Assembly: GCA_041669265.1 (NCBI GenBank)
Contig: JBAYBM010000003.1
Span: 14,103 to 78,102, forward strand
Source of the DNA: Bacilli bacterium
GTDB taxonomy: Bacteria > Bacillota_I > Bacilli_A > RFN20 > CAG-826
Reading direction: 5' to 3'
Length of the DNA stretch: 64,000 nt
The translations under genes were made by a program, and so were the position numbers. This document shows, piece after piece, positions 1 through 17,983 of this stretch; position 1 is the first letter of the stretch, and every line of letters starts with the position of its first letter. Below the pieces are notes generated by a model. It saw only the letters and a program-made list of their open reading frames with translations, was not told where the DNA came from and did no database searches.

Positions 1-589
1 TACTGTTCCAGCACTAATAATACAATTCTTTGAAGTCTCCAATCCTTTCATTATTATACATCTTGCACAAATCCAATTATGCTCACCAATTAATATTGGT
101 AATGTATTATTCTTTGTAGTTTCTATACCTTCTCTTAAATCAATAATAAAATGATGATCAGAATCCATAAACATAGTATCAAAACCTACAGTTGTATTGC
201 TTCCAAATGAAATACTCTTATGACATTCAATAGAAACATTTTGTGATAGATGTACATTTTTACCAAACTTCAACTCTGCACCACTATCAACAACAATAGA
301 GTCTCCTTCAGAAATAACAAAATGTTCATCAACTATAACCCCCCCCCAAATTGCAAATAACTGTTTTCATTTTTTTACCCAAATATTGTGGGTTTGTAGA
401 AAAACCAATGTGACTAAGATGGTGATGATTAATGTTATTAATTATAAAAGAACCTTTTAATTTTAATAACTTAACATTTCTAGCAATTAAAACCAATGGG
501 CGAAATAAAGTTTTTAATCCAAAATAATGAACATTAAACTTAATAGTTTTAAATAATGATATCTTTAATAATAATTTGAATCTTTTCAT
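1..589 (-). CDS. Hexapeptide-repeat (LbH) sugar O-acetyltransferase. The N-terminal reading frame (ATG at 587-589 overlapping the upstream TGA; internal Met at 368-370, MKTVICNLGGG) is out of frame with the LbH body (VIVDEHFVISEGDSIVVDSGAELKFGKNVHL...IGEHNWICARCIIMKGLETSKNCIISAGTV) because of a G9 tract. Partial at the window start; phase-variable or pseudogene
   Basis: Translating the minus strand of 1-340 in the frame after the poly-G gives typical left-handed beta-helix acetyltransferase sequence. The ORF-track 86-aa ORF 329..589 ends GGGYS* directly after the G9 run. The ATGA overlap with the upstream GT gene suggests co-translation from 589. Confidence 0.5.
339..347. repeat. Homopolymeric C9 tract (G9 on the coding strand) inside the 5' coding region of the acetyltransferase; the only C/G homopolymer longer than 5 in the window
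   Basis: Read directly: aactataaccccccccccaaattgc at 331-353. Removing one G (8 G) would fuse MKTVICNLGG to VIVDEHF... in frame. Confidence 0.9.
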
Positions 590-1776
590 AAAAATATCTC
601 CATATAAATTGATATCAACTTAGTCTCATTTGAAGTGTTGCTTTCAAAAACAAAATCATGTATTGAATCTATACTCTTTAAATACTTTAAAAGTTCGCTA
701 ATAGATGATGCTTTATATACAAATCCATTAAGGCCATCAACTATATGTTCTTTAGCAGCACAACAATCAGACACTATACAAGGAATATGAGAACTTAACA
801 TTTCAGGAACTGTTAACGGAGAAACCTCATACCATATTGATGGAAATACAAGAGCTTTTACTTTTGGTAAAATTTCTTCTATTTGATCTTTTTCTAACCA
901 CCCTAAAAACTCAATATTAGGATATTTCTTTTCTAATTCCTGTCTTTGTTCTCCATCTCCAATTACTATACCTTTATAACGACCTAATGTTATTGCTTCA
1001 CAAAAATCTACTACCCCTTTTTCTTTAGTTATTCTACCCATATACAAAAAATATTCTTTATTACTAATACCATTAGATATATATTTAAATTTATCTATTT
1101 CATTAGGATAATAATAATAATTGGCATTTGGATAATATTTTGATATAACATCCTTACTAAGTTTAGATAAATAAATAAAGTTTTCATTATCTTTTAAGTA
1201 TTTTTTTAACCTATTAGTTCTTATTACACGCCATACTTTTTGTAGATAATTTCTTTTATCACAATTACAGAATTTACATTTAACACTTAAAGCTTTATAT
1301 TTACAAATTTCATATTTCTTATAATTTAAGAACCCACCATTAGGACAACATGTAAAATAATCATGTAAAGTAATAACACGTTTAAAACCTAATTCATTAA
1401 TGGCTTTAAATATAGAACAAGATAAAGAATGGCTCCATCCTTGAATATGAATCATTGTATCTTTATTTGAAAAATCCTTTAAAAATAACTTAAGATTTTT
1501 ATAAACTTTTTTATTAAAAATTCCTGAAAAGAATGTATCTATCATTGTTCTATGATTTATATCATTAAGATTTAAACATTTAATATTTACTTTGGATTTA
1601 ATAAGTTCTTCACATATAGGACCACTACCACAATAATAAAAAACATTCAAATTATCTATTTTAGATAAACTAATAGCATTATTAATAGCAACTTTAGCAG
1701 CTCCGCCATTAATATAACCATAATCATAGATAATTATTATATTTTTTATATTATTCATAAAATTATTTGTCTCCAA
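586..1776 (-). CDS. Glycosyltransferase family 4 (GT-B fold)
   Basis: 396 aa; C-terminal E-x7-E region YEVSPLTVPEMLSSHIPCIVSD; the GRITKEKG...VIGDGEQRQELEKK pattern is typical of GT4 retaining transferases. Confidence 0.8.
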   Translation of the reverse strand: METNNFMNNIKNIIIIYDYGYINGGAAKVAINNAISLSKIDNLNVFYYCGSGPICEELIKSKVNIKCLNLNDINHRTMIDTFFSGIFNKKVYKNLKLFLKDFSNKDTMIHIQGWSHSLSCSIFKAINELGFKRVITLHDYFTCCPNGGFLNYKKYEICKYKALSVKCKFCNCDKRNYLQKVWRVIRTNRLKKYLKDNENFIYLSKLSKDVISKYYPNANYYYYPNEIDKFKYISNGISNKEYFLYMGRITKEKGVVDFCEAITLGRYKGIVIGDGEQRQELEKKYPNIEFLGWLEKDQIEEILPKVKALVFPSIWYEVSPLTVPEMLSSHIPCIVSDCCAAKEHIVDGLNGFVYKASSISELLKYLKSIDSIHDFVFESNTSNETKLISIYMEIFL

Positions 1777-2953
1777 CTACATTCATTTTGTTATAAATAC
1801 TTATAACATTTTCATTAAATTCCTTTTCAGAAAAAAGTTTTTCACTTCTTTCTTTAGCACCCTTTGATAATTTATTATATAACTCTTCATCATTTACTAA
1901 TTTCATTATATATTCACCATATTGTTTACTGTTTTTATTTTGTGCTTCTAATCCTGTTTCATTATTAATTGATACCCAATTAACTCCAGATCCTAAAATA
2001 GTAAATGTTACGGTAGGTTTTGCAAAATACATAGCTTCTGCTAAAGATATACCAAATGCTTCATTTCTTGTAATTGAAGGGAAAGTAAAAATATCACATG
2101 CTAATAAATATGAATTAATATCATCTTCACTTAATTTACCTACAAAATAAATATTATTATATTTACTAGCTTGTTTTTTAAGTTCATCTGTTAATGGACC
2201 ACTTCCACCAATAATAATATCTACTTTATCTCTATCAATATATTCATTAGATTCAATTAAATATTTAAGTCCTTTATATTCAACATGTCTTCCAAAGAAG
2301 AAACATATTTTTTTATTTTTATGTTCTTCTTTTATTTCGTTAGATTTCTTTATAATGTCTTCAGTCAATATAGTTCTTTCTTTACCAATACAAGAAGGTA
2401 ATATTTCTATATTTCCTTTATAGTATGGTAAATAATCAGTATCTTTTAAATAAGAAGGAGAAGTAGCAATAACTATATCTGCTCTATTTAACAAATCTTT
2501 ATTTTGTTTAACAAATAATTGTTTTAGTAACTTTTGTTTAATTATATCAGCATGCCAATGTAATATAAATTTTCCCTTATAATGTAATTTCTTTAAATAT
2601 TTTAAAACATAATTTGCTGCATATGGATCAGGATAATGAAAATGAATAATATCAGGATTAAAATCTACTAATATCTTCTTTAAAATCTTCCCATAATTCT
2701 TTGCTAAAGGTTGAGAAGCAACTATTTTTTGTACACCTACTCTATAAACAGTAACTCCATCAATAATTTCTTTTACATCCTTTTTAGTAGAATTAAAAGC
2801 TATTACTTCTACATCATATTTATTAGTAGATTCTAAAAAAGATGAAATATCACAACATGTAGTTTCTATTCCACCAATATAAGGGGGATATCTTTTAGAT
2901 ATTTGTAATACTTTAATCTTGTTACCCATAAAACTAAAAGAACCTTTCTTCAA
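1763..2953 (-). CDS. Glycosyltransferase family 4
   Basis: 396 aa; N-terminal KRYPPYIGGIETTCCDIS, then GRHVEYKG...IIGGSGPLTDELKK and FPSITRNEAFGISLAEAM (E-x7-E); 14-nt overlap with the downstream GT. Confidence 0.8.
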   Translation of the reverse strand: MKKGSFSFMGNKIKVLQISKRYPPYIGGIETTCCDISSFLESTNKYDVEVIAFNSTKKDVKEIIDGVTVYRVGVQKIVASQPLAKNYGKILKKILVDFNPDIIHFHYPDPYAANYVLKYLKKLHYKGKFILHWHADIIKQKLLKQLFVKQNKDLLNRADIVIATSPSYLKDTDYLPYYKGNIEILPSCIGKERTILTEDIIKKSNEIKEEHKNKKICFFFGRHVEYKGLKYLIESNEYIDRDKVDIIIGGSGPLTDELKKQASKYNNIYFVGKLSEDDINSYLLACDIFTFPSITRNEAFGISLAEAMYFAKPTVTFTILGSGVNWVSINNETGLEAQNKNSKQYGEYIMKLVNDEELYNKLSKGAKERSEKLFSEKEFNENVISIYNKMNVVGDK

Positions 2954-3584
2954 GCATTAAACATAAACAATGATATATTGGTAAATGATATTCTTGTACT
3001 ATAAAAGTTTCACTACTAGGAGCTTTAATAGTAATATCAGAAAGAGCAGATAATTTACTATCCTTTTCTCCAGTTAAACCTATTACTTTCATTCCTTTAG
3101 CTTTTGCTACTATTGCAGCATTAATAATATTTTTAGAATTTCCTGAAGTTGAAATTCCTAAAAATACATCACTCTTATTACCTAATATACTTAATTGTTG
3201 AGCAAAAGTATATAATCCACCATCTTTAACATCATTAATAAAAGCAGTATTTAATCCTTGATGTGAATCTAACGCTATAACAGGGAATCCTTTTTGTAAT
3301 TTGGTAGCTATTTCACTACCTAATTCCTTATTAGTTTTAATTAAATCTTCTTCAAATTCCTTATCAATAGGTCTTCTTTTTTTAAAGCCTTTCATTAATT
3401 CACCTACTATATGTTCACTATCACTACAAGATCCACCATTACCAGCTATTAATAATTTATTACCATTAGTAAAACAATCTACTAATATAGTAAATGCTTT
3501 ATTAATATCATCTTTACAACACTTTAAAGCAGGATATCTTTTTATAAGAGTTTCTACATTATATATAAAGTTTTCATCTTCCAT
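2934..3584 (-). CDS. gmhA: D-sedoheptulose-7-phosphate isomerase (SIS domain)
   Basis: 216 aa; LLIAGNGGSCSDSEHIVGELMKGF and GISTSGNSKNIINA SIS motifs. Confidence 0.8.
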   Translation of the reverse strand: MEDENFIYNVETLIKRYPALKCCKDDINKAFTILVDCFTNGNKLLIAGNGGSCSDSEHIVGELMKGFKKRRPIDKEFEEDLIKTNKELGSEIATKLQKGFPVIALDSHQGLNTAFINDVKDGGLYTFAQQLSILGNKSDVFLGISTSGNSKNIINAAIVAKAKGMKVIGLTGEKDSKLSALSDITIKAPSSETFIVQEYHLPIYHCLCLMLEERFF

Positions 3585-3585
3585 A

Positions 3586-4896
3586 TTAGTTATCTCCTTT
3601 TAGTATTATATCTACTGCTTCATTTAAATCTTTAGCATAATAAGTAGGTTTATTTTTACAATCTTTTTTATCACCTAAAAATATTGTATTACATCCACCA
3701 TTAATTCCACATAAAATATCATTATTACCATCTCCAATAAACCAAGATTTCTTTAAATCAATATTAAAATCATTTTGAGCTTTTATTAACATTCCAATTT
3801 TAGGTTTTCGACATTCACAATCAATTTTAAGTTCAGGTATTTCTCCTTTAAATCCTTTATCAGGATGATGTGGACAATAATATATTTTATCTAAATATGC
3901 TCCACTATTTCCAAGTAAAGTTTCCATTTTGTTATGGATATTTTTAAGTTCAGTAAAACTTACTTCACCTCGAGCTACTACTGGTTGATTAGTTACTACT
4001 ATTGCTAAATATCTACTTCTATTAATCTTCGAGATAGCTTCACTTACTCCATCAATTAAATTAAAATCATCTATATTAGTTAAGAAACCTACATATTTAT
4101 TAATAGTACCATCTCTATCTAAGAAGATAGCTCTTTGTTTATTTCTCAAACTCTTATCTTTTACTATTCCATTACTAAAATCATTAGAAACACTATTATA
4201 TCTTTCTGGAGTACCCATATCTTTAATGTATTCAGAAGATTGATAAGCATACATTTTATCCGTGTTTGCTAATGGTTTTAAAATATCTTTATCTAAATCT
4301 ACTATTGGGTTAGTAGTATTAATATTATCTAATACTAATGGAGATACTATATGTAATCCAGCATTCACTTTATTTTGATACCATGTAGGATGTATATCAT
4401 TTTTACCAATCCAAGATAATACTTCATCATCATTATTAGTAATTATGATACTGCTATCAAATGGATGAGAATTAGGATGAGTAAATAAGGTTACTAATCC
4501 TTTCTTTTCTTGATGAAATTTTACAAACTTATTTAAATCTACATCAAATATAGAATCAGCATTAATTAGTAAGAAATCTTCTTTTAATTGATCTTTAATT
4601 TTAAATAATGCTCCAGCATTACCTAATGGTTCATTTTCTTCATAGTAAGATATATGAACTCCAAAAGGTTTATTAGTAATTGGAGATACTTTACTGCCAT
4701 CTCCAAAATAATTAATTATAATATCTTTTAAATAGTTAACAGTAATAATAAGGTCAACAAAACCTTGTTCTTTTAAACAATATATTTCTCTTTCTAAAAC
4801 AGGCATACCATCAATTTGTATCATTGGTTTTGGTATATCTTTATTTATAGAAGAGATTCTAGTTCCTTTTCCTCCAGCCATTATTACTGTAATCAT
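3586..4896 (-). CDS. Bifunctional D-glycero-alpha-D-manno-heptose-1-phosphate guanylyltransferase (HddC-like nucleotidyltransferase) fused to a D,D-heptose-1,7-bisphosphate phosphatase (GmhB-like HAD)
   Basis: N-terminus MITVIMAGGKGTRISS is a sugar-phosphate nucleotidyltransferase. C-terminus AIFLDRDGTINKY...VVTNQP...YYCPHHPDKG...CECRKPKIGM...GDGNNDI is a GmhB/HisB-type HAD phosphatase with a Zn-binding Cys/His cluster. Confidence 0.7.
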   Translation of the reverse strand: MITVIMAGGKGTRISSINKDIPKPMIQIDGMPVLEREIYCLKEQGFVDLIITVNYLKDIIINYFGDGSKVSPITNKPFGVHISYYEENEPLGNAGALFKIKDQLKEDFLLINADSIFDVDLNKFVKFHQEKKGLVTLFTHPNSHPFDSSIIITNNDDEVLSWIGKNDIHPTWYQNKVNAGLHIVSPLVLDNINTTNPIVDLDKDILKPLANTDKMYAYQSSEYIKDMGTPERYNSVSNDFSNGIVKDKSLRNKQRAIFLDRDGTINKYVGFLTNIDDFNLIDGVSEAISKINRSRYLAIVVTNQPVVARGEVSFTELKNIHNKMETLLGNSGAYLDKIYYCPHHPDKGFKGEIPELKIDCECRKPKIGMLIKAQNDFNIDLKKSWFIGDGNNDILCGINGGCNTIFLGDKKDCKNKPTYYAKDLNEAVDIILKGDN

Positions 4897-4903
4897 ATTT
4901 ATA

Positions 4904-5917
4904 TTAACCTTCTACACTTGAATCGTAATCAAAGTTCTCTGGAGTATAATAAATAACTCTTGTTCCACTTCTTTCAAATTTAAAAGGAACTTCCATTAAA
5001 TTACTTAAAGCCTTTCTTACATTATCTTGCTTATCTTTAGTTACATAAAATAAGAGGAATCCACCTCCACCAGCCCCAAGAAGTTTTCCTCCTAAGGCAC
5101 CTGCTTTAATAGCTTTAGTATATAAACTATCAATTGAATCAGTAGTAATTTCACTACCTGTTTGACGTTTTAATTTCCATGTTTCATCAAGTAATCTACC
5201 AAAATCATCTAAATCAATTGTTTTATCTTCTAATACTAATTGAGCTTTATCTACTAACTCTAACATCTTATCTAATTCTTTTTTCTTTTCTTCTAATGTT
5301 GATTCAGTTGATTTTTGTATTTCAGCTGAAAATCTAGTAAATCCTGTAAAGAATAACATTAAATTATCATTTAATTGATTCTTTCTTTCAGGAGAAATAA
5401 TAATAGGATTAACATGATATCCATTGGCATCAAAATCAATTCTATTTAATCCACCAAAAGAAGCAGCTATTTGATCTTGCCATCCTCCAGCTTCATTACA
5501 TAATGTTCTTTCTAAATATATTGCATCATTTGCTAATTGTTTTTTAGATGCATATTTACCTTTTAAACAATAAAAAGCATTTAATAAACCTACAGCAAAA
5601 GTAGAAGATGTACCTAAACCTGTTCTCGCAGGTAAATCTGCATCATAAGAAATATGTAATTCTTTCATATCTAACATCTTCATAGCGTTTCTAACCATTG
5701 GATGTTCTATTTGATCTACAGCACTAACTCTTTCCATCTTAGAATATGTAATTTCAGTAGTATAATTAAAAAACCTTGGTAAATGTCTCACAGTAACATA
5801 AACATATTTATCAAATGTAGTAGAGATAACAGCACCTCTACCTTGTTTAAAATATAATGGTAAATCAGTACCACCACCAAAGAAACTCATTCTAAAAGGT
5901 GTTTTTGTAATAATCAT
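4904..5917 (-). CDS. hddA: D-glycero-alpha-D-manno-heptose 7-phosphate kinase (GHMP kinase)
   Basis: 337 aa; MIITKTPFRMSFFGGGTDLPLYF plus the GHMP motif PARTGLGTSSTFAVGLLNA. Confidence 0.75.
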   Translation of the reverse strand: MIITKTPFRMSFFGGGTDLPLYFKQGRGAVISTTFDKYVYVTVRHLPRFFNYTTEITYSKMERVSAVDQIEHPMVRNAMKMLDMKELHISYDADLPARTGLGTSSTFAVGLLNAFYCLKGKYASKKQLANDAIYLERTLCNEAGGWQDQIAASFGGLNRIDFDANGYHVNPIIISPERKNQLNDNLMLFFTGFTRFSAEIQKSTESTLEEKKKELDKMLELVDKAQLVLEDKTIDLDDFGRLLDETWKLKRQTGSEITTDSIDSLYTKAIKAGALGGKLLGAGGGGFLLFYVTKDKQDNVRKALSNLMEVPFKFERSGTRVIYYTPENFDYDSSVEG

Positions 5918-5919
5918 AT

Positions 5920-6789
5920 CTATTCCCCACTTCTATCGGTTAATACAAACCAAAAACCTTTAAATATAATCTTTAAATCTAAACCTACTGATCTAGTTTC
6001 AATATATTTAAGATCTAAATCAATCCACTCCTCAAATGTAAGTTTATTTCTATGAGGAGTAATTTGCCATAAACAAAGTAATCCTCCCTTTACATCAAGA
6101 CGATGTAATTCTTTAGGATTATAATCTTTTACTTCACTAGCTAAAGGTGGACGAGGACCTACTACAGACATATTACCAACGAATATATCCCATATTTGAG
6201 GTAGTTCATCTAAAGATGTTTTTCTTAAGAATTTTCCAAATTTAGTAATACGAGGATCATCTTTAAGTTTAAATGCAGGTGCATCTGCTTCATTAATACC
6301 ATATTTTAATAAGGTAGCTTTCATAGCTTCTGCTCCAGGACACATACTTCTTATTTTATGAAATACAAAGGTTTTACCATTCTTACCTACTCTTATACTT
6401 CTATAGATAGCACCTTTAACAGTTTTATCTTTAATACCATCTTTATCTTTACTAACTTTACAATTATATCTTTTACCATTCTTAGAAAGATATTTACCAT
6501 TACTATCTTCTACTATATCTAATTTATATGATTTAGAACCTATATCTTCTAAATATTTAATTAGCATTAAAATTAATATTAACCACCAAACAAGTAATAT
6601 TACTAAAAAAGAAGAAACTATATCAAATAGTCTCTTAAAGAATGCATAACATCTACCACCTTTAATTACTATATTTTCGTTATTTGTACTGTTAGAAAGA
6701 TTGTTACTAGTAGTATTCTTACTACTATCAGTATCACTATCTTCCTTTACAGTATTCATAACAAACATTCCTTCACTTTCTACTTTCAT
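5920..6789 (-). CDS. Initiating phosphoglycosyltransferase (bacterial sugar transferase domain, small monotopic PGT type with a ~50-aa insertion)
   Basis: RLFDIVSSFLVILLVWWLILI TM helix; GKNGKTFVFHKIRSM...KDDPRITKFGKFLRKTSLDELPQIWDIFVGNMSVVGPRP is the WbaP/PglC catalytic core. Confidence 0.75.
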   Translation of the reverse strand: MKVESEGMFVMNTVKEDSDTDSSKNTTSNNLSNSTNNENIVIKGGRCYAFFKRLFDIVSSFLVILLVWWLILILMLIKYLEDIGSKSYKLDIVEDSNGKYLSKNGKRYNCKVSKDKDGIKDKTVKGAIYRSIRVGKNGKTFVFHKIRSMCPGAEAMKATLLKYGINEADAPAFKLKDDPRITKFGKFLRKTSLDELPQIWDIFVGNMSVVGPRPPLASEVKDYNPKELHRLDVKGGLLCLWQITPHRNKLTFEEWIDLDLKYIETRSVGLDLKIIFKGFWFVLTDRSGE

Positions 6790-6818
6790 ATTTAGCCCCT
6801 CTTTCTAAATTGAAATTA

Positions 6819-7484
6819 CTATTTTATTTTAAAATTAAATAATTCATCATCTTTAAACATCTTACTAGCTTCTAACATAGTAGAACTTCTAAAACTATGT
6901 ATATCACTACTTACTACATCAATTAATTTTAATTTATGTAGTTTCTTTACTAGTCGTTTTTGTTTAAATCCATCCTTACCTACAATAGTAGAACTATTAA
7001 CTTGTATTAATGCTCCTATTGATTTTAAAGAAGTAATTAAATCAATATCCATCCATGTATAACGTTCAACATGAGCAATAATAGGTAGATAGTTATTATC
7101 AAGGAAACTATAAATTACTTCTTTAACATCTTCTATAGGTTCATGATAATTAAACTCTATTAAAACATATTTTGAGTTATTAAGTGTAAGTAATTTTCCT
7201 TCTTTTAATAGAGAAATAATATCTAATTCATTGGTATAATATATCTCTTCTCCTAAAGATAGTTTTATATTAAGTTTTAATCTATTTACTTCATTAAGTA
7301 AGAGATTATAATTTGTTAATATTTCTTCTTTAGTAGGTGTAAATTGTCTATATCTATAATGTGGTGTAAGTATTATAGTATCTACTCCATTAACAATCTC
7401 TTCTTTAATCATATTAATAGAAGTAGTTAGAGAATTAGATCCATCATCAATATTAGGAATAATATGAGTATGGATATCAATCAT
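6819..7484 (-). CDS. cpsB: PHP-family manganese-dependent protein-tyrosine phosphatase (CpsB/YwqE type)
   Basis: MIDIHTHIIPNIDDGS N-terminus; 221 aa. Confidence 0.8.
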   Translation of the reverse strand: MIDIHTHIIPNIDDGSNSLTTSINMIKEEIVNGVDTIILTPHYRYRQFTPTKEEILTNYNLLLNEVNRLKLNIKLSLGEEIYYTNELDIISLLKEGKLLTLNNSKYVLIEFNYHEPIEDVKEVIYSFLDNNYLPIIAHVERYTWMDIDLITSLKSIGALIQVNSSTIVGKDGFKQKRLVKKLHKLKLIDVVSSDIHSFRSSTMLEASKMFKDDELFNFKIK

Positions 7485-7485
7485 A

Positions 7486-8265
7486 TTACTTACTTACTTC
7501 CCTTGTAGTATTACTACTTTTTTTATTTTTAGGAGATTCATCATAATGTTTATAATAATGATCATATTGATAATAGTAAGAAGTATAATCACTATTCTTT
7601 CTAGTAACATTAGTAAATACTGCTCCTAAGACATTAACATGATTGTTCTTTAAATATTTAACAGCATCTATACTACTCTTACGATCACTGAATATTTGTG
7701 AAACTACAAATATACAACTATCACTAAATCTAGATACTATTAATGCATCACTTACTACGAGTATTGGTGGGCAATCAATAAAGATATAATCATATTTGTC
7801 TCTTAATACTTTCATTAAATCTTTTAATTTAGTAGAATTTAACATCTTTAATGGATATGGTACTTTACTACCACTATTAATAAAATCTATATTCTTATTT
7901 TTAGAATGTTTAATAAGAGTAGATAAAGGTAAATCATTACCTAAATAATCTGTTAATCCATCTTTATTAACTGCTTTAAAAGCATGATGTATTTCAGGTC
8001 TACGTAAATCCATATCTATTATTAATACTTTCTTATCATCTTCAGCAAAGGTAACTGCAATATTTAATAATGTTAATGTTTTACCTTCTCCTTGATTAGA
8101 AGAAGTAATTTGTATAACTTTATTAATATTATCTACACTTGAAAATTCAATACCTACTTTAATTCTTCTATAAGCTTCACTTATATGAGAAGAAGGATCA
8201 AGTAGCGTAATAACATCATGATTAGGATTAGCTTTTTCTTGTTGAATAGCTTTAGCTTTATTCAT
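7486..8265 (-). CDS. cpsD: BY-kinase, cytoplasmic tyrosine autokinase (CpsD/YwqD type) with a C-terminal Tyr cluster
   Basis: Walker A ITSSNQGEGKTLTLLNIA, Walker B VLIIDMDLRRP, C-terminal YTSYYYQYDHYY. Confidence 0.8.
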   Translation of the reverse strand: MNKAKAIQQEKANPNHDVITLLDPSSHISEAYRRIKVGIEFSSVDNINKVIQITSSNQGEGKTLTLLNIAVTFAEDDKKVLIIDMDLRRPEIHHAFKAVNKDGLTDYLGNDLPLSTLIKHSKNKNIDFINSGSKVPYPLKMLNSTKLKDLMKVLRDKYDYIFIDCPPILVVSDALIVSRFSDSCIFVVSQIFSDRKSSIDAVKYLKNNHVNVLGAVFTNVTRKNSDYTSYYYQYDHYYKHYDESPKNKKSSNTTREVSK

Positions 8266-8267
8266 AA

Positions 8268-9125
8268 TTATTTGTTCTCCTTTTTATTTTTAGTATCAAT
8301 ATCATAGAAAGGAATAACTCCAAGTACTGAAATACCTAAAGCTTTTTCTACTTCATCACTAGATTTAAATTTAGTATTAGTAGCTTCTCTAATACAGGTA
8401 TAAATAATAGCAAGTACTACTCCTATTGCTAAACCAATACCAATATTACGTAAAGTATGAGATACTTCTACTCCTACTTTAGCATCACTTAATATTGCTA
8501 TATTATCATATAGTAATTTATATTTAGGAGAATCATCTTCATTTTTTCGATTTGCAATTTCTACTGCTTTTTTAGCTACTAAATTAGCAACAAATTTAGT
8601 TTCATTTTTATCGGTCGAAGTATAAGATACACTAACTACTAGGGTAGCATCTACTAGGGATACTCCTAAATTTTTACTTAATTCTTTTTCATCTATTTCA
8701 TAATTAGAATCTTTATCTATTAAAGATAATACTTCATCTAAAACTACATCTTGTTTTATAAAAGCAACATAGGTTTTAGAAATATAAGAAGAATATTGAT
8801 AATCACTTACTGTAGAAGAATCTCCTGTACTTGTAGATGATTCAGGAGAAACAATTAATGTCGCATCAGAAGAATAAGTATTTGGTTCTACTAAATTATA
8901 AATTTCTCCTCCTACTCCACCTACTATTATAAATAATAAAATAGCTAATAAATGTTTCCTTAAAATAAAAAGAATGTCTTTAAAACTTAGACCTTCTTTT
9001 TCATTATCATCATCACTATTATTGTGGGTAGTTAAAATATCTGTATCACTAGATACAGGTTTATTTACTTCGTTTAAGTTATCCTTTTTGTTCTTTGTAT
9101 TCATATTAACCCCTTTTGTATTCAA
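8268..9125 (-). CDS. cpsC: Polysaccharide co-polymerase / chain-length regulator (CpsC/YwqC/Wzz type); two TM helices
   Basis: N-terminal TM LLAILLFIIVGGVGG, C-terminal TM IGIGLAIGVVLAIIY; partners the downstream kinase. Confidence 0.75.
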   Translation of the reverse strand: MNTKGVNMNTKNKKDNLNEVNKPVSSDTDILTTHNNSDDDNEKEGLSFKDILFILRKHLLAILLFIIVGGVGGEIYNLVEPNTYSSDATLIVSPESSTSTGDSSTVSDYQYSSYISKTYVAFIKQDVVLDEVLSLIDKDSNYEIDEKELSKNLGVSLVDATLVVSVSYTSTDKNETKFVANLVAKKAVEIANRKNEDDSPKYKLLYDNIAILSDAKVGVEVSHTLRNIGIGLAIGVVLAIIYTCIREATNTKFKSSDEVEKALGISVLGVIPFYDIDTKNKKENK

Positions 9126-9216
9126 TTAATTTTACCTTTATTAATTATATATTACAACCATAAAAATTAACTAATAAAGTTGATGTCTTAATATTTTACT
9201 TAAAATTTTAAAAAAG

Positions 9217-9990
9217 TTATTTTTTGTCTCCATAATAACGTTTCTTATAAGAATAATAGTTATAATCATGAGAATAATTACTATTTTTCTTAGTAACATT
9301 AGTAAAGACTACTCCTAAGATAGGAACATCATTATCTTTTAAATATTTCATTGCTAATATAGCATCATTCTTATTACAAAACATTTGGGATACTATAAAT
9401 AATGCTGCATCAGCATAAGTAGCAATAATTAAAGCATCACTAACTGCTAATATTGGTGGACAATCAAGTAAAATATAATCATATTGATCTCTAAATGAAT
9501 CTATTAATTTTTTAATAGATGGATCATCAAGTACTGTTAAAGGATAAGGTACTTTACTACCTCTAACAATATAATCTATATATGGAGATGAAGAATGTTT
9601 TACTAATTTAGATAATGGTATATCACCTACTAAATAATCATCTAATCCATTCTCATTTTTACTTTTAAAAGCATGATGGATTTTAGGTCTACGTAAATCC
9701 ATATCTATTATTAATACTTTCTTCTTATCTTCAATAAATGTAGCAGCTAAATTAAGTAGAGTAATAGTTTTACCATCATTTTGATTTGGTGAAGTAACCT
9801 CTATTACTTGTACTTTACGGTTTATGCTAGAAAATTTAATCCCAACCTTAATACGTCTATAACATTCACTAATACTTCCATTAGGATTTTGTAAGGTAAT
9901 AATGTTATAGTCTTTATTTTTATGCTCTCTTTTTAAAATGCTTTTTCTATTCATCGACTTTACCCCCAACATCCTCATCTTTAACATCAT
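9217..9990 (-). CDS. Second BY-kinase paralog (CpsD type); the real start is probably internal (MNRKSILK...)
   Basis: Walker A VTSPNQNDGKTITLLNLA, VLIIDMDLRRP, C-terminal YSHDYNYYSYKKRYY; clear paralog of 7486..8265. Confidence 0.75.
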   Translation of the reverse strand: MMLKMRMLGVKSMNRKSILKREHKNKDYNIITLQNPNGSISECYRRIKVGIKFSSINRKVQVIEVTSPNQNDGKTITLLNLAATFIEDKKKVLIIDMDLRRPKIHHAFKSKNENGLDDYLVGDIPLSKLVKHSSSPYIDYIVRGSKVPYPLTVLDDPSIKKLIDSFRDQYDYILLDCPPILAVSDALIIATYADAALFIVSQMFCNKNDAILAMKYLKDNDVPILGVVFTNVTKKNSNYSHDYNYYSYKKRYYGDKK

Positions 9991-10549
9991 CTATATCATA
10001 AAAGGGGATAACGCCAATAACGGAAGCACCAAGAATACTTTCAACTTCTTCTGGGGATTTAAATTTAGTATTCAATGCTTCTCTAACGCATACATATATG
10101 ATAGCAATTACAAAGCCAATTGCAAATCCAATACCTATATTTCTAACAGTATGAGATACTTTTTTACCTTCTTTAGCTTCACTTAAAACTGCTATATTAT
10201 CATATAGTAATTTATATTTAGGTTCTTTATTAGTAGTAGTAGCATTTGCTACTTCTACTACTTTATTTACCAAAATATTTACAATATATTGAGCTTCTTT
10301 AGAATCAGTACTCGTATAACCTACACTAATAACTAAAGAAGAATTAACTAAGGTTGCACTTATATGATTTCTTAAGATATCACTAGTAAGTTCTAATCCT
10401 TTAGCTTCATTAATAGTATTACTTACTTCATCTAAAACTACATCTTCACTAATAAAAGTAACATAGGTTTTAGAAATATAAGAAGAATATTGATAATCAT
10501 CTACACTAGTAGAATCACCTACTAAAGTTTCATCAGGAGACACAATCAT
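9947..10549 (-). CDS. Second CpsC/Wzz paralog, N-terminally truncated: the first TM segment is missing. The open frame continues upstream to ~10630 without any ATG/GTG/TTG
   Basis: MIVSPDETLVGDSTSVDDYQYSSYISKTYV aligns with residues ~85 onward of 8268..9125. Hand translation upstream gives ...SCKVNVKFSPKNIFLEVKNYEATATM with no start codon and a TAA at ~10628-10630. Confidence 0.5.
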   Translation of the reverse strand: MIVSPDETLVGDSTSVDDYQYSSYISKTYVTFISEDVVLDEVSNTINEAKGLELTSDILRNHISATLVNSSLVISVGYTSTDSKEAQYIVNILVNKVVEVANATTTNKEPKYKLLYDNIAVLSEAKEGKKVSHTVRNIGIGFAIGFVIAIIYVCVREALNTKFKSPEEVESILGASVIGVIPFYDIDDVKDEDVGGKVDE

Positions 10550-10670
10550 TGTAGCAGTAGCTTCATAATTTTTGACTTCTAAAAAATGTTTTTAGGTGAA
10601 AATTTAACATTAACTTTACATGATTAAAAGTAATAATCTGATTTTTTAACATTCTAAATATTAATAATAT

Positions 10671-12005
10671 CTATAGTAAATAAACTAAATAATAAGGTAA
10701 TGTAAGAACTTGATTGTCTCTACCAATATTATAATTACCTAACTTTATAGCACTATGAACATCATATTTATCTTTATTCTTTAAGATCGTATTAGTAGAT
10801 TTAATATTCCCGCTATTTGATTTAACTTCAATTAAAGTTAATTCATTATTTATTCTTTTAACAAAGTCTACTTCTAAACCAGAATTCTTATGGAAATAAT
10901 ATAATTTTTCATTATTCTTAATAAATGCATCCGCTACAATATTTTCATATATTGCACCTTTATACGTAAGAATGTTATTAGAAAGAATGCTAGAAGCTGT
11001 ACCATCTTCTAACATAGAAATAAATAACCCTGTATCAGTTAAATATAATTTAAAAGATTCTTCATCTTTATTACCTTCTAAAGGAAGTTCTAATTGATGT
11101 AGATTGTTACATTTCTTTACTAAACCATAATCTACTAACCATTCTATTGCAGAGTAATATTCTCTTCCTTTACCACCTTTTTTAACTAATGAATATTGAA
11201 ATCTTTTATTTTCTTTAGCAAGTTGGTTAGGTATAGAAGTAAATACTTCTTCAATTCTAGTAAGTAAAGTATAATCTATTCTTTCATTTTCATTATCATC
11301 AAGATGTTTACCAAAATCATCTTTATATTCATTAACTAAATCTCTTTGGCTTTCTAATATGGCATTCATATCATTTGTTTTTAAAAATGTTTCTACTACC
11401 GAAGGCATACCACCAACTACTAAATATTCTTTAAAATATCTAAGCATAGAATTATGAATTGTATCTGGAATCTTCTTTTCTTTTTGATAACATTCCTTTA
11501 AAGAATCTATAACTTCTTGATTAATGCCTTTAGCCCATAAAAATTCTATAAAATTTAATGGATACATATCGATAATATGTTCAAAACCTACTGGAACATC
11601 TTGATTAAGTTTACGGTTATAATTTCTTAAACCAAGTAATGAACCAGAACCTATTACATCATATCTTCCATCTTTAATAAAAAACTTAATTGATGATCTT
11701 GCTCTTGTACAATCTTGTATTTCATCAAAAAAGATTATAGTTTTCTTTGGAACAAATCTTATATTACTCATAGCAGCTGATAACTCTAAAGTAATTCTAT
11801 TAATATCAAAGTCTCCATCAAATATTTTCTTTATATTTTCATTTTCTTTAAAATTTATTTCTACAACATTTTCATATTTTTGGTGAACAAAATATTCGAT
11901 AAGATAAGTTTTACCTACTTGTCTTAATCCTCTTACAATTAAAGCTTTCTTACGGTCGCCATTATACCAACTTAATAACTCTTTATAGATGCTTCTTTGT
12001 AACAT
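10671..12005 (-). CDS. AAA+ superfamily ATPase of the COG1373 type (N-terminal P-loop, C-terminal DUF4143-like region)
   Basis: LIVRGLRQVGKTYLIEYF Walker A, IIFFDEIQ Walker B; 444 aa; strong SD GGAGGT 8 nt upstream of the ATG. Confidence 0.7.
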   Translation of the reverse strand: MLQRSIYKELLSWYNGDRKKALIVRGLRQVGKTYLIEYFVHQKYENVVEINFKENENIKKIFDGDFDINRITLELSAAMSNIRFVPKKTIIFFDEIQDCTRARSSIKFFIKDGRYDVIGSGSLLGLRNYNRKLNQDVPVGFEHIIDMYPLNFIEFLWAKGINQEVIDSLKECYQKEKKIPDTIHNSMLRYFKEYLVVGGMPSVVETFLKTNDMNAILESQRDLVNEYKDDFGKHLDDNENERIDYTLLTRIEEVFTSIPNQLAKENKRFQYSLVKKGGKGREYYSAIEWLVDYGLVKKCNNLHQLELPLEGNKDEESFKLYLTDTGLFISMLEDGTASSILSNNILTYKGAIYENIVADAFIKNNEKLYYFHKNSGLEVDFVKRINNELTLIEVKSNSGNIKSTNTILKNKDKYDVHSAIKLGNYNIGRDNQVLTLPYYLVYLL

Positions 12006-12027
12006 ATTTATCTACCTCCATTTATAA

Positions 12028-12126
12028 TTTACACCTTTTTCAAGGGAGTTTTCAATATACTTTACACCTTTTTCAAGGGAGTTTTTTATATACTTTACAC
12101 CTTTTTCAAGGGACTTTTGTTATTAT
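12028..12126. repeat. Three tandem copies of a ~33-bp direct repeat (TTTACACCTTTTTCAAGGGAGTTTTYWATATAC), immediately upstream of the ATPase gene
   Basis: Read directly at 12028-12060, 12061-12093 and 12094-12126; the third copy is slightly diverged. Confidence 0.85.
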
Positions 12127-12310: not shown

Positions 12311-13240
12311 ATGAAGAAGTGCTTAATTATCATTAATGAGTTAAGTGGCTCTATTAAAAGAATGAACTTAGAAGAAATTAAAAGTGTCTTCTGTTTTAAC
12401 TATGAACCAGAAGTATTAAAACTATATTCTAAAAAACAAAAGTATTCTCCTAATGGATTTGATAGAGTAGTCATATGTGGAGGAGATGGAACCTTCTCTA
12501 AATATTTTAATAATGCTAAAGATTGTAGAGATCCAAATAGAGAGATAATCTATATCCCTTTTGGCACTTTAAATGAAAAAGCTAAAGGTAATAAGAGTTT
12601 AGCTAAATTAGAACCAGTATTATTAAATAATTTAGGAAGTATAGCAGATTATTACTTCTCTTATGTAGCAGCTACAGGTAGTTTTACTCCTTTAGGTTAT
12701 GTAGTAAACGATAAAAAGAAAAAGAAAAGAAAAGTATTCTCCTATATTAGTAAAGTATTAAAAGAATATAAAGTACATCATGTTGATGCCACTATCTCAA
12801 GTATTTCTAATACTAATATTTATATTAAAGATACTTTTGCTATAGTAATGATTTTAAAATCTAAAGAATGTTTTGGTTTAAAATTTAATCATTTATATCG
12901 AGAAGATAATGAAACATTATATTTACTTACTATTAAAGCACCTAAACATAAGAATGTATGGGGAAAAATAAAATTATTTTTCCCACTATTTAGAGCATTC
13001 TTTATAGGTTTTAATAAAGAATATAGAAGTAAATATATAAACTTTATACCATTTAAAGAACAATTAAATATTAATCTTAAAAAAGATGAACCATTCTGTG
13101 TAGATGGAGAATTAGTAAATATTAATAAAGAGAATAACTTAATAGAAAATATAAACGTAGTTAATAGAATTGCTATCTATAAAAGAAAAGATGTTGATAA
13201 GATGTATGCTGAACATAAGCATATTGATGAAAGAATCTAA
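12311..13240 (+). CDS. Diacylglycerol/lipid kinase catalytic-domain protein (YegS/DgkB/LCB5 family)
   Basis: VVICGGDGTFSKY and IPFGTLNE match the DAGK_cat GGDGT / P-x-G-T-x-N motifs; 309 aa; the only confidently coding plus-strand gene in the first 40 kb. Confidence 0.65.
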   Translation: MKKCLIIINELSGSIKRMNLEEIKSVFCFNYEPEVLKLYSKKQKYSPNGFDRVVICGGDGTFSKYFNNAKDCRDPNREIIYIPFGTLNEKAKGNKSLAKLEPVLLNNLGSIADYYFSYVAATGSFTPLGYVVNDKKKKKRKVFSYISKVLKEYKVHHVDATISSISNTNIYIKDTFAIVMILKSKECFGLKFNHLYREDNETLYLLTIKAPKHKNVWGKIKLFFPLFRAFFIGFNKEYRSKYINFIPFKEQLNINLKKDEPFCVDGELVNINKENNLIENINVVNRIAIYKRKDVDKMYAEHKHIDERI

Positions 13241-13378: not shown

Positions 13379-14329
13379 TTACTTTTGATAAAGTTTTAAA
13401 GAATTTATTTCAAAATGAGAATATTTATATACATTAGAATTACCAGTGGTATCTTTTTTAAAGTAAGATGCTCCAGTTACTACTTCTCCACTAGTAGGAG
13501 TACTTTCACTATAAAAAGTACCATCTAAATTAGAGAATTCTATACTAATAAAATATATTTGTTTTATTCCTGTAGCAAAGGTAGTAGATATTAATTCAGT
13601 ATTTGTATCATCATATAATATCTCTCCTGTAGTAGATCCATCTACTACTGTACCCTTATTATCAGTAGTATTAGTTTTAGTATCAGTATCTAATTTATCA
13701 GTATAATTAATAACGCCAGTTCCTGTTCTACCACTACTAGGATAAGTAACAAAATCATTAGCTACTACAGTACTTGTAGTAGTTGTATCACTAGTGTCAT
13801 AACTAGTAACATATAAATTTATAGCATCACTTAATTCTACTCTACGAGTAGTAACAGTATCATCATTACCACTAAGAACATAATTTAAATTAGTAGTAAT
13901 ATTATCAAAATAATTAGAGAAAGAAGCTAAAGATAAAGCTACATCTATATCATTAAAAGTAGTAGTTACTTCTAAAGCAAAAGTATATCTTGCTCCTGGT
14001 ACCATATTTGATAAATCTGTATGAGTATTACTAGCACTTAAAAAATCTGTATCATAATCAGTTACTGTTTTAATATTAGTAGAATTTTCTTCATATTGCC
14101 CTGGTTCAATATAACCATGATATTCATTACTACTATTATAATTATTTTTATAATATTTTAAGTTATAGGTAATTTCATTAGAGGTAGCAATAATATTACT
14201 TACTGTAACACTAGCTTTATTAGTAGAAGTAAACCAAGCATAGGTAGAACTTATAGTAGCTAAAAAAACAAAGCCTATTTGAACTAAAGCTAATGCAATA
14301 ATTTTAGATTGTTTTTTAACGCTCTTCAT
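13379..14329 (-). CDS. Secreted T/S/N/D-rich protein with a TasA/camelysin-like (SipW-cognate class) signal peptide
   Basis: N-terminus KIIALALVQIGFVFLATISSTYAWFTSTNKASV resembles the TasA-type leader (hydrophobic core then T-Y-A-x-F-T-D/S); good SD AGGAGGAT upstream. Confidence 0.5.
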   Translation of the reverse strand: MKSVKKQSKIIALALVQIGFVFLATISSTYAWFTSTNKASVTVSNIIATSNEITYNLKYYKNNYNSSNEYHGYIEPGQYEENSTNIKTVTDYDTDFLSASNTHTDLSNMVPGARYTFALEVTTTFNDIDVALSLASFSNYFDNITTNLNYVLSGNDDTVTTRRVELSDAINLYVTSYDTSDTTTTSTVVANDFVTYPSSGRTGTGVINYTDKLDTDTKTNTTDNKGTVVDGSTTGEILYDDTNTELISTTFATGIKQIYFISIEFSNLDGTFYSESTPTSGEVVTGASYFKKDTTGNSNVYKYSHFEINSLKLYQK

Positions 14330-14640
14330 ATAGATCCTCCTATAAAATAAAAATACCAGCAGCTAAAATTTCTTTTAGGCAACTGGCAACCAATACATAT
14401 TTATATAGGCCCTATAGCTTTGCGTCACTAAGTTTCCCTAGTTTTGCTTGTAGTTATTATATTACGAAAGTATTTCGCAAACAAGTAAAATTTTATGTAA
14501 TCGATTTCGTGAATTGTGTTGTATACATCGTATCTTTTAAAGATTATTTTTATATAGAAAATTCAAACTAAATTATGTAGTTTTTATCAATGAAATTTCT
14601 ATTTTTAATACTAAAAAGTAATATAAAACCACACCAAATA

Positions 14641-17700: not shown

Positions 17701-17983
17701 CTAAAGATGTACCTTTAGCGACCGCACAAGTTCCATCGCTAGCAGTTATATATTCTAAGCCTTCAGTATAAGTATCACCTGTATAGTCATTATTATATCT
17801 AGATACTCCATATTTAGTGAATTTACGATTAGGATCACCATCTTTAGATACTTTATCAAGTTCTTCCATAGTTTCATCGGTATCAGTATTTATATTATTG
17901 TTACAAGAACTTGTTAAAGATACTATACCTAATATAGTTAATATACATAAGAATCTTTTTAAGTTAATATTAAATAATTTCAT
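14708..17983 (-). CDS. Large surface lipoprotein with BspA-type leucine-rich repeats (LRR_5-like)
   Basis: Lipobox-like ILGIVSLTSSC. Many repeats of the IP..V..I...AF..C..L form, e.g. TIPNTLGGYVVQGIYEKAFYNNTNITSITTN...IEKDAFSGCTNMTAITLNEGLLTIGETAFYNNKKVTTLTIPSSVTTISKWAF; 1091 aa. Confidence 0.7.
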   Translation of the reverse strand: MKLFNINLKRFLCILTILGIVSLTSSCNNNINTDTDETMEELDKVSKDGDPNRKFTKYGVSRYNNDYTGDTYTEGLEYITASDGTCAVAKGTSLDNATNGYIDLPNYYVSNGTTYTITSIANNGFNGADITNISDWPDYLTTIGKQAFANNNKMVTFILPKLVVDSDSDYTNDKNQIFPGTFENCSNLTYLYYETDATYTKIWDHAFSGCTTLIYAADAKNFFALPTGLIEVGASAFAYCKYLNRLLMPITTKIIRENAFFNCTSVNLIHLPSSVTTVEKWAFRGIKSATIYMQDDAVPDTYTTDWNRIGNSTGSATDSNIYIQIDYGYVDIGIENSCLYMSKNDGDTTYSYIYGYNGNGGAVTIPNTLGGYVVQGIYEKAFYNNTNITSITTNTDLTFIEKDAFSGCTNMTAITLNEGLLTIGETAFYNNKKVTTLTIPSSVTTISKWAFNNLYALKELYFAGAEDGTCSLTTIAEGAFKINDGNGATNADGFELKIPYSLLDTSSSTYTTHIGNQAFNNCKFITTLTFVTAPDALSPTSSLTNIGDSCFSSCSNLTTINWGNWINELYNNVFSYCTKLPYLYIPLRIKKVNSNIAIGSKLSIYLEGTKTNYSATNYKLSTSAEGNGTGYNNAGFNADVNGIYFGIGAETNIHSNTDQGYYYIYDSGTVDSYDTGGHVSGTTHEPTTAHITITGYIKSTTYSNKTLKVNATETVDEGTFNVTEIGQGAFAGNSYMNKLELPNTIVTIGYAGLYACNNLAQVVGYSGTTYNNNYVFPTSLGYIGQNGCMGTKLTYVVLPTTVDIYFPSGYKATTTPDNSPNARLNVFYNVSGCNGYSLGTISNTDEVVGTYLSSYNSCFYINAARNVTAGGNGQVLMCVPRTLTTLKTISTCDITGMDMLKGDTALTSLDLNYGLESMYGWAFNPCVNLATITLPSTIKYLGNSIFSGCSGITNMKTRYANDENTGSVVDNATIVNFATNTDKTGSILYIGDSAFSGCTSLTGFILPSDTTNLTVNANSFAASNAYIYVSESYDTFYNMHKEGGTHAWTTSWNSGAKATAYYSATKPSDTLLESRRYWYYDTNNLPAFWTI

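Follow-up and report, generated by a model that had tools for sequence, protein, structure and literature searches.

The minus-strand gene cluster that runs from position 12005 to 586 of the window, the 64,000-nt stretch of DNA analysed here, is an ordinary Wzx/Wzy-type capsule/exopolysaccharide (EPS) cluster from an uncultured, low-GC member of the Bacilli. It comprises an ATPase gene, two Wzz-kinase pairs, CpsB, a priming transferase (PGT), heptose genes and two glycosyltransferases. The reading that we favour, with a probability of about three in four, is that of a Wzx/Wzy locus combining a horizontally shared heptose cassette with an old or leftover cpsC'-cpsD' pair, of which cpsC' is a pseudogene. 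This uncultured, reduced-genome lineage of Bacilli probably makes a heptose-containing surface polysaccharide.

Gene content and extent of the locus

Gene content, domain families and motifs were shown directly. HMM and family searches recovered every gene listed in a preliminary description of this DNA, all on the minus strand and in the positions proposed, and family matches likewise placed the heptose genes between the glycosyltransferases and a CpsB/C/D module. The host genome has a GC content of 25-28%. Among the relatives of the host lineage, uncultured Bacilli with reduced genomes, is Candidatus Onthovivens.

The window most likely covers the 5' half of a Wzx/Wzy-dependent locus. The priming polyprenyl-phosphate sugar-1-phosphate transferase (Bac_transf; 5920..6789; PF02397, 176 bits) carries about 45 extra aa after its TM helix and is 62% identical to its homologue in L014 over residues 38-289. 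The glycosyltransferases are a GT4 enzyme (1763..2929; PF00534/PF13439) and a Glycos_transf_1 enzyme (586..1758; PF00534). Searches for identical products gave no match for the longest ORFs of gmhA and of the glycosyltransferase gene at 586-1776; the ATG-start version of the GT4 gene did give one. Wzx and Wzy had been predicted to lie past the window start, and this is borne out by a contig, L011, that is 100% identical to window positions 1-3192 and continues into genes for Wzy (PF14296), Wzx (PF01943) and the CDP-glucose enzymes RfbF and RfbG. The priming PGT in the window and Wzy and Wzx on L011 thereby fall into one cluster. A LytR/LCP gene was found neither upstream nor in the 6.7 kb past the window start, so the locus fits a capsule or a released EPS alike. 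A promoter scan of the locus performed no better than on shuffled sequence.

In the working that we propose, the Bac_transf enzyme would prime undecaprenyl phosphate, the GT4-type transferases would build the repeat unit, and its flipping and polymerisation would fall to Wzx and Wzy, encoded shortly past the window start. Polymerisation and export would be controlled through tyrosine-phosphorylation cycles by the intact CpsC adaptor, the CpsD autokinase and CpsB, a PHP-type phosphotyrosine phosphatase (6819..7484; PF19567, 211 bits). This arrangement, with a split adaptor, a cytoplasmic BY-kinase and a PHP phosphatase at the 5' end, is shared with CpsB/CpsC/CpsD of S. pneumoniae and CapA/CapB/CapC of S. 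aureus, and the kinase motifs and Tyr cluster of those modules are conserved. In contrast to them, the genes here follow the order C-D-B without a leading cpsA/LCP gene, and an extra C'-D' pair whose adaptor lacks TM1 precedes them.

The predicted heptose-activation cassette

The cassette encodes a GmhA-like sedoheptulose-7-P isomerase (2934..3584), a 436-aa nucleotidyltransferase-GmhB fusion (3586..4896) and an HddA-like GHMP-family sugar kinase (4904..5917; PF00288 + PF08544). The best NCBIfam match of the isomerase is gmhA (TIGR00441, 123 bits against a cut-off of 209). It has the SIS fold, and alignment to B. pseudomallei GmhA (2xbl) shows that GNGGS, EHIxGE, STSG and QExH...H are kept, including the His/Glu...Gln/His set and the STSG phosphate loop, despite an insertion of about 25 aa. 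The kinase possesses both GHMP domains, N- and C-terminal, and is closest to heptose kinases at the family level only: its best NCBIfam family is HddA (147 bits, cut-off 600; fucokinase model 90), and its best PDB matches are WcbL (4usk), B. thetaiotaomicron 3k85 and C. jejuni HddA-like 4n3o (124-134 bits; fucokinase 72). The concern that the kinase might group with non-heptose enzymes is thus not realised.

In the fusion protein, a sugar-1-P nucleotidyltransferase (NTP_transferase; residues 1-240) precedes a GmhB-type HAD-IIIA phosphatase (residues 253-430). The phosphatase domain is closest to GmhB, scoring 156 bits with NF006506 (cut-off 178) and 111 bits with E. coli GmhB (2gmw) in the PDB, and its translation carries DRDGT, the Cys/His zinc loop CPHH...CECRKP and GDGNND, a form of GDxxxD. 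The nucleotidyltransferase domain resembles HddC no more than it does mannose-1-P guanylyltransferases or UDP-glucose pyrophosphorylases: the HddC model gives 84 bits (cut-off 300), the mannose-1-P guanylyltransferase model 127 (below its own cut-off) and the UDP-glucose enzyme 94, while in the PDB other NDP-sugar enzymes reach 82-87 bits and HddC (5xhw) 70. Its assignment as HddC rests on the GmhB fusion and the cassette context.

A complete route to GDP-heptose had been proposed for these genes. Enzymes for all four activities of the alpha-anomer, GHMP-kinase route are encoded, at the family level and with the HddC step assigned from context; GDP as the nucleotide is what we infer. The same four activities occur in the GDP-D-glycero-alpha-D-manno-heptose pathway of the A. 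thermoaerophilus S-layer glycan, the C. jejuni and B. pseudomallei capsules and the Y. pseudotuberculosis O-antigen. As there, the kinase is of the GHMP rather than the PfkB type, which marks the alpha-anomer route, and the phosphatase is GmhB-like with a Zn loop. The present cassette differs in the fusion of phosphatase and nucleotidyltransferase, in the GmhA insertion and in having no adjacent genes for heptose-modifying epimerases, dehydratases or reductases.

GmhA would isomerise sedoheptulose-7-P, the GHMP kinase would convert heptose-7-P to alpha-heptose-1,7-bisphosphate, and the fused enzyme would remove the 7-phosphate and then nucleotidylate heptose-1-P. The product would be NDP-, most likely GDP-, D-glycero-alpha-D-manno-heptose. 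Every heptose-enzyme match falls under its NCBIfam equivalog cut-off, most of them far below it; together with a nucleotidyltransferase that is not specifically HddC-like, these scores leave the nucleotide, and strictly also the sugar, as a prediction. A different activated sugar, made with another nucleotide (CDP, UDP or ADP) or from a non-heptose substrate, would suit the sub-cut-off scores, the higher mannose-1-P guanylyltransferase and UDP-glucose scores, and the lack of any characterised member of the fused family in the literature searched. It is nevertheless unlikely, given the GmhA motifs kept in the isomerase, the closeness of the phosphatase to GmhB structures and that of the kinase to three heptose-kinase structures. 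To our knowledge, moreover, all characterised GHMP-kinase heptose routes yield GDP-heptose (A. thermoaerophilus, C. jejuni, Y. pseudotuberculosis, B. pseudomallei).

The heptose genes are a common, widespread mobile cassette with no claim to rarity. Clostridia loci carry the trio in the same order and at the same sizes (337/429/214 aa), with 77/65/62% identity, and at least 8000 relatives share the architecture of the fusion. CpsB and the lipid kinase DAGK, by comparison, are only 48-55% identical to their nearest relatives, against the 62-77% of the cassette to Clostridia. The cassette would thus have been shared horizontally with Clostridia. It circulates widely among Firmicutes. The locus as a whole matters little beyond annotation. 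The literature searched yielded no characterised HddC-GmhB fusion or Firmicute heptose cassette; with so many relatives of the fusion, its characterisation would improve the annotation of many gut and digester genomes. NCBI names the fusion only 'HAD-IIIA family hydrolase', and JGI calls some relatives heptose-1,7-bisphosphate phosphatase.

Two adaptor-kinase pairs and a truncated cpsC'

The claim that a CpsC-CpsD pair is present twice in tandem is upheld by family matches and motifs. The first pair consists of a full-length Wzz/CpsC adaptor (278 aa; 8268..9104, frame open to 9125; PF02706) and CpsD (259 aa; 7486..8265). The second consists of a 5'-truncated Wzz/CpsC paralogue, cpsC' (200 aa; 9947..10549), and CpsD' (245 aa; 9217..9954), for which the start at ATG 9954, in a frame open to 9990, was chosen by alignment with the kinases of relatives. 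CpsD and CpsD' score 160 and 139 bits with TIGR01007, above the cut-off of 108. Both kinases carry the Walker A, A' and B motifs and the C-terminal tyrosine cluster that define BY-kinases; CpsD was aligned to PDB Etk and CapB, and CpsD', aligned to Etk/Wzc/CapB, keeps GKT, IDMDLRR, DCPP and the C-terminal Tyr cluster.

The word 'duplicated' does not imply a recent event. The two pairs share 57-60% protein identity and 72% DNA identity, and either pair is 47-58% identical to those of other lineages, a like distance. In a tree of both pairs with lineage L004, the three form a split without resolution, and the sister grouping of the two copies receives bootstrap values of only 0.35 and 0.49. A recent tandem cpsCD duplication in this genome would account for the tandem layout, the shared gene order and a DNA similarity detectable over about 1285 nt, yet that similarity contains many gaps and the copies are not much closer to each other than to orthologues. 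With these identities and this tree, we reject such an event as very improbable. On the sequence comparisons, the second pair is an old paralogy or an acquired pair, and may be a leftover from locus exchange. Two adaptor-kinase pairs per genome, of moderate identity and possibly with one less active, are also found in S. aureus (CapA2/CapB2) and B. subtilis (EpsA/EpsB and TkmA/PtkA) (PMC3795738). Those pairs, in contrast, lie at separate loci with intact adaptors, whereas here they are in tandem and one adaptor is 5'-deleted.

The truncation of cpsC' was observed directly. Only positions 67-224 of the 226-position CpsC model TIGR01006 are matched by its 200 aa; alignment A1 and hydropathy show that the N-terminal cytoplasmic stretch and TM1 are gone and that the protein retains its extracellular domain, TM2 and the C-terminal tail that activates the kinase. 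The product thus has one hydrophobic segment, against two in the intact copy, and only the copy at 8268-9104 shows the adaptor layout of two TM segments flanking an extracellular domain, followed by a C-terminal tail. Homology to full-length relatives reaches 14 codons upstream of ATG 10549 (10550..10591, KHFLEVKNYEATAT, aligned with VEKKSYEATAT of P0003), and tblastn puts its beginning near 10588. This untranslatable remnant ends at an in-frame TAA (10594-10592), with no ATG, GTG or TTG between.

The upstream copy had been described as lacking both its first TM segment and a start codon. The loss of TM1 and a frame that extends upstream without an ATG there both hold, but the frame does contain an ATG, at 10549. 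Gene callers start there, and of the four full-length family members in the alignment three conserve this Met. No Shine-Dalgarno-like sequence precedes it, in contrast to the ATPase gene, cpsC and cpsD'. The placement of the loss exactly at the junction with the ATPase gene is approximately right, the breakpoint lying about 80 nt downstream of the ATPase stop (10671), inside a 121-nt spacer. No terminator was found between the two genes.

An assembly or sequencing artefact, the alternative that the preliminary description had raised, can be dismissed almost entirely. The source is a metagenome-assembled genome, and contigs of other samples break inside gmhA. However, the identical 200-aa product occurs on at least five contigs, and two contigs assembled independently, one from a JGI metagenome and the other from a Logan run, are 100% identical to the window in DNA; the defect, moreover, is the absence of about 240 nt of coding sequence with no frameshift.

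Since the start and ribosome-binding site went with the 5' end, cpsC' is most likely a recent pseudogene. Amino-acid changes are not in excess in the truncated copy relative to the intact paralogue (27 against 28, 24 against 27 and 27 against 18), which fits recent loss. CpsD' may still be made, as its kinase motifs are all intact and its gene has a ribosome-binding site of its own (GGGGGT).

CpsC' could instead still function as a single-pass, TM2-anchored protein whose tail activates CpsD', giving a second kinase module uncoupled from chain-length control. Several features are compatible with this: TM2 survives, as do all invariant residues of the C-terminal tail with its IPFYD motif, the substitution rate is not raised, a 200-codon frame is intact in so AT-rich a genome, the 8-nt overlap of cpsD' with the cpsC' stop resembles that of coupled pairs, and CpsD' retains its motifs and Tyr cluster. 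In S. aureus, where second CapA/CapB pairs occur, the last ~27-30 residues of CapA suffice for CapB activation (PMC3795738); CapA-tail/CapB chimeras are represented in the PDB (4jlv, 3bfv). Against this, ATG 10549 is preceded by neither a ribosome-binding site nor another possible start, and the homology runs through non-coding sequence to a stop, which points to a deletion rather than a designed short form. Without TM1, the normally extracellular domain (about 150 aa) would have no way through the membrane, and no relative has such a form. We therefore regard a functional CpsC' as improbable, and its synthesis from the conserved internal Met as anchor and activator of CpsD' as slightly more so. 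Such a protein would be a natural equivalent of the engineered chimeras, and the second tyrosine-kinase module could act on other targets or tune the main CpsCD pair.

The pseudogene reading also agrees with the relatives, in which the absence of the truncation was observed directly. Each of four related loci (two nearly identical; three lineages) has a single Wzz-kinase pair and no ATPase gene, and no full-length second cpsC was seen in any relative in the data searched. Single-protein scans of genome and metagenome contigs for relatives of the truncated Wzz returned nothing; scans with alignment A1 returned two loci each in genome and metagenome contigs, both genome loci being already known. 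The flank of the locus is conserved: three of the four loci (L004, L010, L015) carry a 48-51% identical counterpart of its divergent DAGK_cat lipid-kinase gene (12311..13240, plus strand; PF00781), likewise divergent from their first Wzz gene and adjacent to it.

The ATPase gene and the G9 tract

Between the DAGK flank and the cps genes lies the lineage-specific ATPase gene (AAA_14 + DUF4143; 10671..12005), which L004, L010 and L015 lack at this junction. Its profile match to PADLOC PDC-S01 (486 bits, E 2e-146) places it in a family regarded as a candidate defence system. A repeat search around it gave no flanking direct or inverted repeats of the kind that mark a mobile element, only a 33-nt unit present three times in tandem ahead of its start. 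Nor did any N-terminal remnant of cpsC' turn up on the far, upstream side of the ATPase gene, which argues for deletion or replacement rather than simple insertion. We infer the order of events and the expression state: one lineage-specific event may have introduced the ATPase gene and removed some 60-80 codons from the 5' end of cpsC' (~83 columns of the alignment, TM1 among them), with the start and ribosome-binding site. As the relatives are distant (47-58% identity), the timing and direction of these events are weakly constrained.

At the window start lies an O-acetyltransferase gene (1..589, minus strand) whose 3' part runs beyond it. A G9 tract at 339-347 (C9 on the plus strand), the only G/C run of at least six in the window, breaks its frame. 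Together with the remnant cpsC'D' beside an inserted candidate defence gene, this poly-G-split acetyltransferase illustrates capsule-locus remodelling, although no new principle emerges. A protein search with the reconstructed in-frame acetyltransferase gave no match. Like the poly-G phase-variable genes of C. jejuni, this is a long G tract in a polysaccharide-modifying gene, out of frame in an AT-rich genome; in contrast to those contingency loci, no variation in tract length was observed among the four contigs that carry the gene, all of which give the same out-of-frame product. The tract is a possible phase-variation switch, and G8 in its place would restore a WcaF/WbbJ-like protein.

Organization of the capsule/EPS locus

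The locus is best read as an ordinary Wzy-dependent capsule/EPS machine, which CpsB/C/D would regulate and to which a borrowed cassette would supply NDP-heptose. All of its genes in the window, assigned to families with Pfam and NCBIfam, lie on the minus strand. Those named in a preliminary description, together with the truncation of one Wzz copy, were all recovered, and its overall interpretation is supported with the refinements set out below. G+C content is ~28% across the window and 22–29% within the cps region; the NCBI product label is 'MAG: Bacilli bacterium'.

The regulatory pairs are followed by a CpsB phosphatase (7484–6819) and a Bac_transf priming transferase (6789–5920), and the heptose cassette by two GT4/GT1-type glycosyltransferases (2929–1763 and 1758–586). 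The priming phosphoglycosyl transferase carries an extra Lys/Asp-rich stretch of ~45 aa (residues ~78–125) between its membrane helix and catalytic domain. This stretch is also found in the homologue from the related locus L014 (62% identity, residues 38–289), while the alignment with the homologue from a second related locus, L004, spans residues 123–289 only.

Over window positions 1–3192, contig L011 matches at 100% identity, and it extends 6.7 kb past the window start. Its genes there are, in order, a split O-acetyltransferase, Wzy (PF14296), a GT4 glycosyltransferase, a 320-aa protein, Wzx (PF01943), a glucose-1-P cytidylyltransferase (358 bits) and a CDP-glucose 4,6-dehydratase (359 bits). 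L011 thus bears out the prediction that Wzx and Wzy would lie in this region; for LytR, predicted alongside them, no LCP/LytR gene was seen in these 6.7 kb or upstream. Because both CDP-glucose enzymes, each scoring above its equivalog cut-off, occupy the distal end of the locus (L011 8361–9934), the polymer may also contain a CDP-derived deoxyhexose.

The heptose cassette and its distribution

The GHMP kinase (5917–4904) has HddA as its top NCBIfam family (147 bits; fucokinase, 90), and its closest solved structures are B. pseudomallei WcbL, B. thetaiotaomicron 3k85 and C. jejuni 4n3o (124–134 bits). In the adjoining NTP_transferase + HAD-IIIA fusion (4896–3586), the C-terminal half is nearest to GmhB (E. 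coli 2gmw, 111 bits) and carries DRDGT, a Cys/His zinc loop and GDxxxD. The nucleotidyltransferase half scores 84 bits for HddC, 127 for a mannose-1-P guanylyltransferase model and 94 for a UDP-glucose enzyme, in agreement with structure comparison, and appears not to be specifically HddC-like. The SIS isomerase (3584–2934) aligns with GmhA structures and retains their active-site motifs. It has a ~25-aa insertion (residues ~73–97) relative to all solved GmhA structures, which looks like a family trait since the 214-aa size recurs in Clostridia cassettes.

All heptose-enzyme scores fall below equivalog cut-offs. At the family level, the locus is predicted to encode each of the four activities that make up the GHMP-kinase (alpha-anomer) heptose route. 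The complete GDP-heptose route that had been proposed stands in this form; GDP as the nucleotide is inferred by analogy with characterised pathways.

At least 8000 proteins are related to the fusion (E ≤ 1e-20); the best matches among them are ~428 aa long and 64–71% identical. Most are unnamed, and those with names are Clostridia MAG proteins labelled 'HAD-IIIA family hydrolase'; a literature search found no paper characterising the fused nucleotidyltransferase-GmhB family. The three genes recur with matching order and sizes (337/429/214 aa) on four contigs (L016–L019) representing two sampled lineages of Clostridia, with 77% identity to the window for the kinase, 64–66% for the fusion and 62–63% for the isomerase. 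Core locus genes share just 48–55% identity with those of the nearest relatives. Conservation of the cassette between classes thus exceeds that of the backbone within the lineage, and this pattern points to horizontal transmission of a common and mobile unit.

Contigs of other assemblies break within gmhA (window ~3172–3443): L001 and L003 stop at 3443 and L002 at 3172, and L011 begins at 3192. Possible causes are strain variation or a change in coverage where the variable part of the locus starts.

Two Wzz–kinase pairs and a truncated CpsC

Two Wzz/BY-kinase pairs are present as described: cpsC′ (10549–9947, a Wzz-like ORF of 200 aa) with cpsD′ (9954–9217), and the full Wzz/CpsC gene cpsC (9104–8268) with a second BY-kinase gene, cpsD (8265–7486). 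Both kinases retain Walker A (GKT), A′ (IDMDLRR), B (DCPP) and the C-terminal tyrosine cluster. A recent duplication is rejected, as the pairs share 57–60% protein identity and 72% DNA identity over ~1285 nt, and neighbour-joining trees give a three-way split between the two copies and lineage L004, with bootstraps for the copies as sisters of 0.35 (Wzz) and 0.49 (kinase). The extra pair would instead represent old paralogy, or a pair kept or acquired during locus exchange.

Relatives of the Wzz protein are few, with only four others among 5.8 billion proteins, and their loci are L004/L013, L010/L012 (Candidatus Onthovivens sp.), L014 (98% identity to L010 across these proteins) and L015. Each has a single Wzz–kinase pair, which in three of the loci directly adjoins the divergent DAGK gene (DAGK_cat; 12311–13240, plus strand, in the window). 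The AAA_14/DUF4143 ATPase gene (12005–10671), which borders the cps locus and scores 486 bits on PDC-S01, a candidate family of single-gene defence in PADLOC, is absent from all of these loci, including at the same junction. Neither the second pair nor the truncation is therefore shared with these relatives, and by this comparison the ATPase, like the extra pair, is specific to this lineage. In the spacer common to the ATPase and DAGK genes, a 33-nt unit is repeated three times in tandem (copies 85–100% identical; 12023–12121), immediately 5′ of the start codon of the ATPase gene.

The cpsC′ product covers only positions 67–224 of the 226-position CpsC model. In an alignment with four full-length homologues, the first ~83 columns, TM1 among them, are missing from this product, which has one hydrophobic segment instead of two. 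Homology runs 14 codons 5′ of ATG 10549 and stops at a TAA, with no start codon between, consistent with the loss of TM1 and start noted previously. The Met of this ATG is kept in three of the four aligned full-length family members. No Shine-Dalgarno-like sequence precedes it, whereas the ATPase gene, cpsC and cpsD′ each have one, and no N-terminal cpsC′ remnant is found beyond the ATPase gene. A local sequencing error is ruled out because the identical 200-aa product occurs on at least five contigs and independently assembled contigs are 100% identical to the window in DNA.

Most likely, cpsC′ is a recent pseudogene that the arrival of the ATPase gene would have created, with cpsD′ left as an orphan kinase that is perhaps still expressed. 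The main alternative, a CpsC′ still functioning as a single-pass activator, is improbable. It draws on S. aureus, in which the last ~27–30 CapA residues alone are enough to activate CapB (PMC3795738), and on the alignment, in which this CapA-type tail is fully conserved in CpsC′. In a relative-rate test, the truncated copy showed no acceleration (27 v 28, 24 v 27, 27 v 18), an outcome suggesting either recent loss or a protein still under constraint.

Split O-acetyltransferase and neighbouring genes

A G9 tract at 339–347 (C9 on the plus strand, G9 on the coding strand) breaks the WcaF/WbbJ-like O-acetyltransferase gene of the cps locus (window 1–589, continuing in L011 2604–3270) into ORFs of 86 and 116 aa. 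This tract is the sole G or C run of at least 6 in the 64-kb window (~0.007 expected). With G8 in its place, the gene would again encode a 221-aa protein, whose alignment to the family model crosses the junction; the out-of-frame form is present in all four contigs carrying the gene. The tract is a candidate slipped-strand phase-variation switch.

A c-di-GMP-I riboswitch (14375–14458, minus strand; 61.7 bits against a gathering score of 35) sits upstream of a 316-aa ORF (13379–14329) with no Pfam match. Also beside the cps region are a BspA-type leucine-rich-repeat protein of 1091 aa (14708–17983, minus strand) and a Kelch-repeat protein of 780 aa (23560–25902, minus strand).
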